Shown here piece after piece: positions 53,494 through 54,874 of a stretch of DNA of 64,000 nucleotides (positions within the stretch are counted from its first letter, which is position 1; each line of letters opens with the position of its first letter). The translations under genes were made by a program, and so were the position numbers. Under the pieces are notes generated by a model. It saw only the letters and a list, made by a program, of their open reading frames with translations, did no database searches and was not told where the DNA came from. The stretch lies in NCBI RefSeq assembly GCF_055900595.2, contig NZ_CM148325.1. One strand, written 5' to 3'.

Positions 53494-53740
53494 AGAAAAA
53501 AGGCGACAGATTACTCTGTCGCCTTTTTTCCTGACTCATAACCCTTAACGGGTCTTACAATCCTTGCAGGCCGCCAACACACCCTGTTTTTCCATTAGCC
53601 GGAACAATCCGTGTTGATTCCATTTCCGTTTAATTACGTCTCCGGACGTTTGTCTTCCTGACAATCCTCTGTCTTCGCCTCCTGGCGCTCCTGACCCTCA
53701 TCCTGAGTCATTGTTCCTGTTAGCGTCCTCGCTCTATGGG
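53494..53740 (-). ncRNA. csrC: CsrC small RNA (CsrA-sequestering)
   Basis: About 14 GGA triplets on the minus strand; ends in hairpin ggcgacagagtaatctgtcgcc plus U-run; position between yihI and engB. Confidence 0.8.
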
Positions 53741-54007
53741 TGCTACTTTACGCCTTTGCTTTAAACAAACAATCAACCGCCATCAGTATTTGCACATTTT
53801 CAGAGTTTTATATAAAAGCAATTAACTGATTTATATAGCTTATTTGACATGCATCGCAGAATTTTCTCTGCTATTTCGCATAAAGACTATCGGCAATGTC
53901 TCACAAAGCGTATGGCTTTTACTTACAACGCTCACGCCGAAAAATCCGCCTTTTATTATGGTTCAGGTATAATCACCGCAAAGCTTTGACTGACGGAGAC
54001 GACCGCT

Positions 54008-54640
54008 TTGACTAATTTGAATTATCAACAGACGCATTTTGTGATGAGTGCGCCTGATATTCGCCACCTACCTTCCGATACCGGAATTGAAGTGGCTTTT
54101 GCAGGCCGTTCCAACGCAGGTAAATCCAGCGCGCTGAACACGCTGACTAACCAGAAAAGCCTGGCGCGGACCTCAAAAACCCCAGGGCGCACCCAGCTTA
54201 TCAACCTGTTTGAAGTGGCTGACGGCAAGCGTCTGGTTGACCTGCCCGGCTATGGCTACGCGGAAGTCCCGGAAGAGATGAAGCGCAAATGGCAACGCGC
54301 GCTCGGCGAGTACCTCGAAAAACGTCAGAGCCTGCAAGGCCTGGTGGTACTCATGGATATTCGCCATCCGCTGAAAGATTTGGATCAGCAGATGATTGAG
54401 TGGGCGGTAGACAGTAATATCGCCGTACTGGTGCTGCTGACCAAAGCGGACAAACTGGCAAGCGGCGCACGTAAAGCACAATTGAATATGGTGCGTGAAG
54501 CAGTGCTGGCGTTTAACGGTGATGTGCAGGTTGAAACGTTCTCTTCGCTGAAGAAGCAAGGCGTGGACAAGCTGCGGCAGAAACTGGATACCTGGTTTAG
54601 CGAGATGCAGCCTGTAAAAGAAACGCAGGACGGCGAATAA
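54008..54640 (+). CDS. engB: Ribosome-biogenesis GTPase EngB/YihA (210 aa, TTG start)
   Basis: G motifs [20 protein letters not shown]. Confidence 0.85.
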
Positions 54641-54654
54641 TTTTCTTGCCTTAA

Positions 54655-54746
54655 TGCTTGTGCCGGATGTGGCGTATCCGGCCCGTAAATTCAATAGATT
54701 ACACTTCTACCGTTGGCCTGATAATCAGTGCGCATCAGGCATTACG
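54655..54746. repeat. REP elements
   Basis: tgccggatgtggcgtatccggccc and ggcctgataatcagtgcgcatcaggc. Confidence 0.6.
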
Positions 54747-54765
54747 GATCTTTTCTTTCGCCCAA

Positions 54766-54874
54766 TAAAAAACGCCCCAGTCATTACTGACTGGGGCGGC
54801 TAAAATATTCAGCCAAATCCGATTACGTGAAGTAAAAGGTCTGAAAGATAGAACATCTTACCTCTGTACCCTAC
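54766..54874 (-). ncRNA. spf: Spot 42 small RNA
   Basis: Minus strand reads GTAGGGTACAGAGGTAAGATGTTC...CCCCAGTCAGTAATGACTGGGGCGTTTTTTA, matching Spot 42 as recalled (109 nt). Confidence 0.9.

Follow-up and report, generated by a model that had tools for sequence, protein, structure and literature searches.

Small RNAs that regulate CsrA can be recognized by five sequence criteria, namely an intergenic location, a high density of AGGA/ARGGA motifs, a rho-independent terminator, placement of GGA motifs in loops and a conserved upstream region, and all csrC homologues have been found in the yihA/yihI context (Kulkarni et al., 2006, PMC1488887). About 9 CsrA-binding sites are reported for CsrC compared with 18 for CsrB, and the PhoP box of the K-12 csrC gene has been mapped and mutated (PMC12266141). 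Spot 42, the product of spf, is 109 nt long, its promoter is repressed by cAMP-CRP, and it encodes the small protein SpfP, a CRP-binding peptide that prevents activation at certain promoters (PMC8916003). In the K-12 Term-seq tables, a CsrC 3' end at nt 202 is classified as 'internal' and Rho-independent (Adams et al., 2021). The mechanisms of CsrC and Spot 42 that are invoked below come from published work on the identical or nearly identical K-12 genes (PMC12266141, PMC1488887, PMC8916003), and the analysis presented here addresses identity, boundaries, motifs, structure, terminators and synteny.

The stretch of DNA analyzed in this work (64,000 nucleotides of contig NZ_CM148325.1, hereinafter the window) corresponds, by BLAST comparison, to the reverse complement of the K-12 MG1655 chromosome from about 4,040,6xx to 4,093,4xx, with several strain-specific insertions that are all located far from csrC and spf. 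The gene order polA, spf, yihA/engB, csrC, yihI, hemN is that of K-12, seen here in reverse complement (Table 1). The engB/yihA gene, which has 96.4% nucleotide identity to its K-12 counterpart, is placed between the two RNA genes, divergent from csrC and convergent with spf; the latter lies downstream of polA, and csrC is intergenic between yihA and yihI, as in the context described by Kulkarni et al. (2006). A 1631-nt query taken from positions 53400-55030 matched 5425 of the 5426 complete E. coli genomes, and the csrC-spf locus, at a coverage of at least 80% of this query, is present in 5414 of the 5426. Identity to the query is 95-99% in most complete E. coli genomes and, among the matches listed, reaches 100% in 8 of 12. 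The Rfam scores given below, the identity to K-12 and the conserved gene order all agree, no observation speaks against the identification, and csrC and spf in the window are almost certainly orthologues of the known E. coli genes, at their usual chromosomal position. The features of both genes are already known, and there is nothing novel at this locus. Two palindromes can be read in the spacer between engB and spf, GCCGGAT...ATCCGGC at ~54663-54683 and GCCTGAT...ATCAGGC at ~54717-54741, which are probable REP-type elements, judging from the REP consensus. A low-threshold Rfam scan of positions 53300-55100 revealed no further RNA gene, with sub-threshold matches only, to terminator-like families and over the known hairpins.

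Table 1. Coordinates of the features of the csrC-spf region, in positions of the window
Feature	Position	Strand	Basis and remarks
yihI	52917..53426	-	ORF and annotation; followed by hemN, both downstream of csrC on the same strand
csrC, putative CsrA-decoy sRNA, 246 nt	53737..53492	-	K-12 annotation (b4457) mapped without gaps
csrC intrinsic terminator	53496..53529		hairpin 53502-53523, 9-bp GC-rich stem, 4-nt loop
K-12 Term-seq 'internal' CsrC 3' end (K-12 4051237, CsrC nt 202)	53536	-	mapped by ungapped alignment
PGAP pseudo-CDS over csrC, 'hypothetical protein; frameshifted; internal stop'	53545-53711 equivalent	-	strain AST85
csrC -10 hexamer TAAAGT	53745..53750	-	read from sequence; -13 to -8 from start 53737
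PhoP box GGTTGATTGTTTGTTTAA, overlapping the csrC promoter -35	53778..53761	-	K-12 4050995-4051012 (PMC12266141), mapped
engB/yihA, ribosome-biogenesis GTPase, 210 aa, TTG start	54008..54640	+	ORF; RefSeq annotation (identical strain, K-12)
engB-spf spacer	54641..54763		119 of 123 positions the same as in K-12
spf, Spot 42 sRNA, 109 nt	54874..54766	-	Rfam; K-12 b3864; Term-seq 3' end
spf intrinsic terminator	54767..54798	-	hairpin 54773-54798 (11 bp), then U6
spfP, 15-codon ORF in Spot 42, MFYLSDLLLHVIGFG then stop	54856..54809	-	translation
spf -10 hexamer TAAAGT	54882..54887	-	read from sequence; -13 to -8
polA	55022..57808	-	ORF and annotation; precedes spf on the same strand

In the Rfam scan of the whole window at gathering thresholds, the CsrC model (RF00084) matched positions 53737..53484 of the minus strand over its entire length (model positions 1-255 of 255), scoring 277.9 bits where the gathering threshold is 61 (E = 1.2e-87), and is the best match in the window within the CsrB/CsrC clan CL00106. 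The Spot_42 model (RF00021) likewise matched in full (positions 1-115 of 115) at 54884..54766 of the minus strand and reached 122.8 bits (gathering threshold 80). Thus, the initial annotation, which had placed CsrC and Spot 42 on the minus strand on the two sides of engB and had named a covariance-model search as the appropriate check, is borne out by that search, and its outer coordinates, 53494 and 54874, are correct within 2 nt (the 3' end of csrC is at 53492). The length of about 247 nt that it gave for CsrC is 1-2 nt too long, and the implied 5' end at 53740 is located 3 nt upstream of the annotated start; its estimate of roughly 14 GGA motifs coincides with the exact count, the intrinsic terminator that it assigned to csrC is present, and the length of 109 nt for Spot 42 holds.

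The 14 GGA triplets of csrC, 9 of which are AGGA, fall within 246 nt and represent the maximum for the window on either strand, against a background of 3.2 +/- 1.8 per 246-nt span on the csrC strand. Dinucleotide-preserving shuffles of csrC contain 8.9 +/- 2.0 GGA compared with the actual 14; the shuffled sequences remain high in GGA because GG and GA dinucleotides are abundant in csrC to begin with. When projected on the Rfam consensus structure, hairpin loops contain 6 of the 14 triplets and single-stranded linkers another 5, and the remaining ones map to a helix bulge, a stem and a terminator base (one each). In a single-sequence fold, half of the triplets (7/14) have a mean unpaired probability of at least 0.7. 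Given the figure of about 9 CsrA sites for CsrC in the literature, 14 is to be read as a raw motif count, not as a count of binding sites. The predicted fold of CsrC is much more stable than expected (z = -6.3, with none of the 200 dinucleotide-preserving shuffles as stable), and the RNA ends in the terminator stem followed by U6CU3. All five features listed by Kulkarni et al. (2006) are found in csrC, the fifth, the csrC upstream site, only by way of the identity of the promoter to that of K-12. The 'internal' K-12 3' end maps a short distance 5' of the terminator and of the final GGA, and the K-12 Term-seq tables contain no entry at the csrC terminator itself (Adams et al., 2021); the end at nt 202 is probably a product of processing or decay.

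For Spot 42, the primary 3' end in the K-12 Term-seq data (4050007) corresponds to window position 54766 and, with the 5' end at 54874, yields the 109-nt RNA; the K-12 annotation of spf runs 2 nt further, to 54764. The RNA is predicted to fold into three hairpins with an unpaired segment at nt 49-60 (z = -5.1, 0 of 200 shuffles as stable). The spfP reading frame within it is intact and is annotated both in K-12 (b4837) and in a strain that is identical to the window over 53400-55030. The initial annotation treated Spot 42 as purely non-coding and omitted this embedded frame.

The promoters of csrC and spf were compared with consensus sequences and with K-12. A generic sigma-70 scan flagged neither of them; in both, the -10 hexamer is TAAAGT and the -35 region is poor (TTGTTT in the case of csrC), so that this miss is uninformative either way. 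The same combination fits regulated promoters. The csrC promoter is the same as in K-12 from -1 to -86, and in the first 130 nt of the spf promoter position -40 is the only difference from K-12. The PhoP box GGTTGATTGTTTGTTTAA, with one mismatch to the GTTTA-N6-GTTTA direct repeat, is also the same as in K-12. No clear GacA/UvrY-type palindrome was detected in the csrC promoter by the consensus scan, the best candidate having 4 mismatches, and the matches to the CRP consensus upstream of spf are weak (2 mismatches in the one centred at -84.5 and 4 in the one centred at -26.5). Among the CRP, PhoP and GacA/UvrY consensus scans of both promoters, the PhoP box is the only convincing match.

Two readings that assign protein-coding content to the RNA genes have to be considered. 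The csrC interval could be a decayed protein-coding gene, as it appears in RefSeq: in strain AST85, identical to the window over 53400-55030, the PGAP pipeline left csrC unannotated and placed a pseudo-CDS over it, and in the other genomes among the matches listed, the feature given for the csrC match is likewise 'hypothetical protein'. However, a frameshift and an internal stop are noted in the PGAP entry, the ORF list contains no minus-strand ORF of at least 40 aa inside csrC, and the same sequence, which is matched by the covariance model in full (E of about 1e-87), is the ncRNA csrC in the curated K-12 record. Furthermore, csrC is 99.6% identical to K-12 compared with 96.4-98.4% for the flanking coding genes, with no sign of the decay of a pseudogene. 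We consider the pseudogene to be an annotation artefact, with practically no chance of being real. The statement in the initial annotation that neither RNA appears in ORF-based annotation is accordingly right in rough terms, with the reservation that the pseudo-CDS covers csrC and that spfP is annotated within Spot 42; indeed, the RefSeq annotation of identical strains carries spf or spfP. The intact, annotated 15-codon frame MFYLSDLLLHVIGFG, whose product binds CRP and blocks the activation of some promoters (PMC8916003), raises the question of whether the spf interval is important mainly as a very short mRNA encoding SpfP and not as a base-pairing RNA. This is very unlikely, given that Spot 42 is a dual-function RNA in which base pairing is dominant at lower temperature (PMC8916003) and that the RNA is identical to that of K-12 throughout, terminator and U-tail included. 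The SpfP reading complements the identification of spf as an sRNA gene instead of replacing it.

The csrC terminator, which the initial annotation described as bidirectional, presents a less clear-cut case. Its hairpin is bounded by two runs, one of which (53496-53501) is the U6 tail of CsrC whereas the other (53524-53529) is an A6 tract upstream of the hairpin in CsrC and would be a U6 tail for a plus-strand transcript. The generic terminator scan called this hairpin on the minus strand only; it lacks a plus-strand call because it extended the stem through the A:T runs and consumed the plus-strand T-tail. When the core hairpin and tails were then rescored by hand, the values for the antisense (plus-strand) orientation (hairpin dG -15.0 kcal/mol, T-tail score 4.42) came close to those for the sense orientation (-15.9 kcal/mol and 5.14). 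On the plus strand, too, the portion of the CsrC model that describes the terminator finds a match, with 42.9 bits, and the A-tract upstream of the terminator is conserved in the Rfam CsrC consensus. The prediction of a bidirectional architecture is thus supported, with both orientations scoring as intrinsic terminators. By comparison, the spf terminator (dG -22.2, T-tail score 4.76 on the minus strand compared with 0.60 on the plus strand) is clearly unidirectional; it is spf that truly faces a convergent gene, engB. A genome-wide map of bidirectional terminators in E. coli was reportedly published by Ju et al. in 2019. Whether the csrC terminator works both ways, that is, ends CsrC, stops plus-strand transcription arriving through yihI and hemN and shields csrC and engB, is a separate matter. 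The symmetric A6, hairpin, T6 layout, the similar scores for the two strands, the plus-strand match of the model and the conserved A-tract, which in the literature is a hallmark of terminators able to act in both directions, all speak for such a role. However, A-tracts are also known in unidirectional terminators, where they perhaps only extend the hairpin, and the generic scan made no plus-strand call at csrC. The units at this terminator do not converge: beyond it comes yihI, which is transcribed in the same direction as csrC, and the plus strand leading up to it is the antisense strand of hemN and yihI and contributes no gene that would run into it. The glnALG-yshB operon, the nearest transcription unit on the plus strand, already has a strong 3' end of its own at the stop codon of hemN (K-12 4053422, about 51351 in the window), and among the 3' ends tabulated by Term-seq between K-12 positions 4050007 and 4053422 none is on the strand opposite to csrC (Adams et al., 2021). 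Of three papers that mention both csrC and a bidirectional terminator, the one listed applies the phrase to a synthetic part of a reporter and not to csrC. Taken together, these observations leave the two-way function doubtful; of the description in the initial annotation, the architecture stands, and a convergent gene and an opposite-strand K-12 3' end are what it lacks.

The preferred reading, that the window carries the standard csrC and spf genes, implies the mechanisms established for K-12. CsrC would be an RNA of ~245 nt, devoid of an intact reading frame, that presents GGA/AGGA motifs in hairpin loops and linkers and that, as a decoy, would bind several CsrA dimers and so relieve CsrA control of target mRNAs. 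Sequestration of CsrA is predicted here from the 99.6% identity to the characterized K-12 RNA. With its weak -35, the csrC promoter would need activators, presumably BarA-UvrY, with PhoP acting at the box over the -35, and the strong intrinsic terminator would end the transcript. Spot 42, for its part, is expected to repress mRNAs involved in the utilization of non-preferred carbon sources, by Hfq-dependent pairing with targets such as galK, as suggested by its 100% identity to the K-12 RNA, and would in addition encode the 15-aa SpfP that binds CRP. The csrA, hfq, uvrY and crp genes are located outside the window.

The sole substitution in csrC relative to K-12 is A144U (window position 53594). 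In the Rfam structure, it is located in a hairpin loop by the closing stem, immediately 5' of a GGA, and changes AGGA to UGGA. The U144 allele was found in 2517 of the 5426 complete E. coli genomes (46%), as counted with a 41-nt query centred on the site, for which the U allele is needed for the megablast seed, and is therefore a common polymorphism. The effects of A144U and of the changes at csrC -87 and spf -40 are probably negligible. A composite proposal, in which the csrC terminator works bidirectionally as an insulator and, separately, A144U slightly alters the number of CsrA dimers held, appears clearly unlikely. If it were true, the insulator would halt stray antisense transcription from hemN and yihI before csrC and would spare engB from read-in, and E. 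coli lineages would differ a little in Csr buffering as a result of A144U. ORF-driven pipelines still mislabel csrC, and the main value of the present analysis is as a quality check; the locus opens no biological question.

The closest known counterparts of the two genes are those of K-12. The csrC gene shares 245 of 246 nt with b4457, along with the start, the terminator and the flanking yihA and yihI genes, and differs from it upstream by three substitutions, at -87, -238 and -241. The spf gene is identical to b3864 in all 111 nt, shares with it SpfP, the terminator and the polA-spf-yihA order, and differs in the promoter by a G to A change at -40 (54914) and a 1-nt indel near -131. Among other RNAs, CsrB is similar to CsrC in its many GGA motifs in loops, activation by BarA-UvrY, an intrinsic terminator and the same mode of action, but is distinguished by a length of about 360 nt, about 18 CsrA sites as opposed to about 9 in CsrC, and a location adjoining syd.

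In the RefSeq/PGAP record of AST85, an E. coli strain identical to the window over 53400-55030, a pseudo-CDS ("hypothetical protein; frameshifted; internal stop") is drawn over csrC, the gene for the CsrA-decoy sRNA, at window positions 53545-53711 on the minus strand, and no ncRNA feature is present at this locus. The same label, "hypothetical protein", is found under csrC also in the other genomes among the matches listed. The pseudo-CDS over csrC is an annotation artefact.

The published Term-seq 3' end tables for K-12 contain no entry for the csrC terminator itself and report an internal, Rho-independent 3' end at nt 202 of CsrC, upstream of the terminator (window position 53536, minus strand) (Adams et al., 2021). 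It may have arisen by processing or decay of the RNA. Another K-12 3' end from the same tables, 4053422, maps to window position ~51351, on the strand opposite to hemN and directly past the hemN stop codon, that is, at the junction where hemN and glnALG-yshB converge. Within this neighbourhood, the junction is a better candidate for a functional bidirectional terminator than csrC. The terminator of spf, the Spot 42 gene, is without a U-tail in the direction of engB, the convergent GTPase gene. Non-coding differences from K-12 are few, and 4 of them lie in the engB-spf spacer (54641-54763), which contains two palindromes, presumably of the REP type.

Further Rfam matches in the window, each exceeding its gathering score, are ES222, naRNA4, ES036 and SECIS_3 (see the table). 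In the 3' UTR of glnA, the region of the GlnZ sRNA in K-12, a short stretch (48272-48320) fails to align with K-12, which suggests a GlnZ variant that would be specific to this strain.

Features encoded in segments absent from K-12 and additional Rfam matches in the window
Feature	Coordinates	Strand	Match or location
464-aa RafY-type glycoporin, rhaM-frvA segment	356-1750	-	PF16966, E = 3e-154
768-aa protein	8265-10571	-	weak TPR matches only
611-aa HSP90-family/GHKL ATPase	10573-12408	-	NF010683, 288 bits, under family cut-off
SECIS_3 selenocysteine insertion element	14332-14390	+	Rfam; within fdoG
ES036	19477-19519	-	Rfam
617-aa ORF, fabY-yiiE insertion	20978-22831	-	
291-aa TauE/SafE-family exporter, yihQ-yihR segment	32160-33035	+	
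ES222	46559-46666	-	Rfam, 133 bits; glnA-bipA intergenic region
naRNA4, REP-derived RNA	51163-51240	-	Rfam; downstream of hemN

Several protein-coding segments of the window are missing in K-12. The 4.5-kb insertion between fdhD and yiiG (8213-12718) carries two co-directional ORFs, which encode the HSP90-family ATPase and the 768-aa protein; no family was found for the latter in NCBIfam or PADLOC. The ORF of the 2-kb insertion between fabY and yiiE (20681-22727) has no match in Pfam or PADLOC. The segment between rhaM and frvA (317-2094) encodes the glycoporin, and the segment between yihQ and yihR (32091-33086), within the sulfoquinovose cluster, encodes the exporter. Finally, a cluster of six genes (38824-44606) encodes STM4015, STM4014 (ATP-grasp), STM4013 (sulfatase-like hydrolase), STM4012 (HemN-like radical SAM), STM4011 (radical SAM) and a Cof-type HAD phosphatase. 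The protein families of this cluster are uncharacterised though conserved. In K-12, the place of these six genes is taken by yihL, yihM and yihN.
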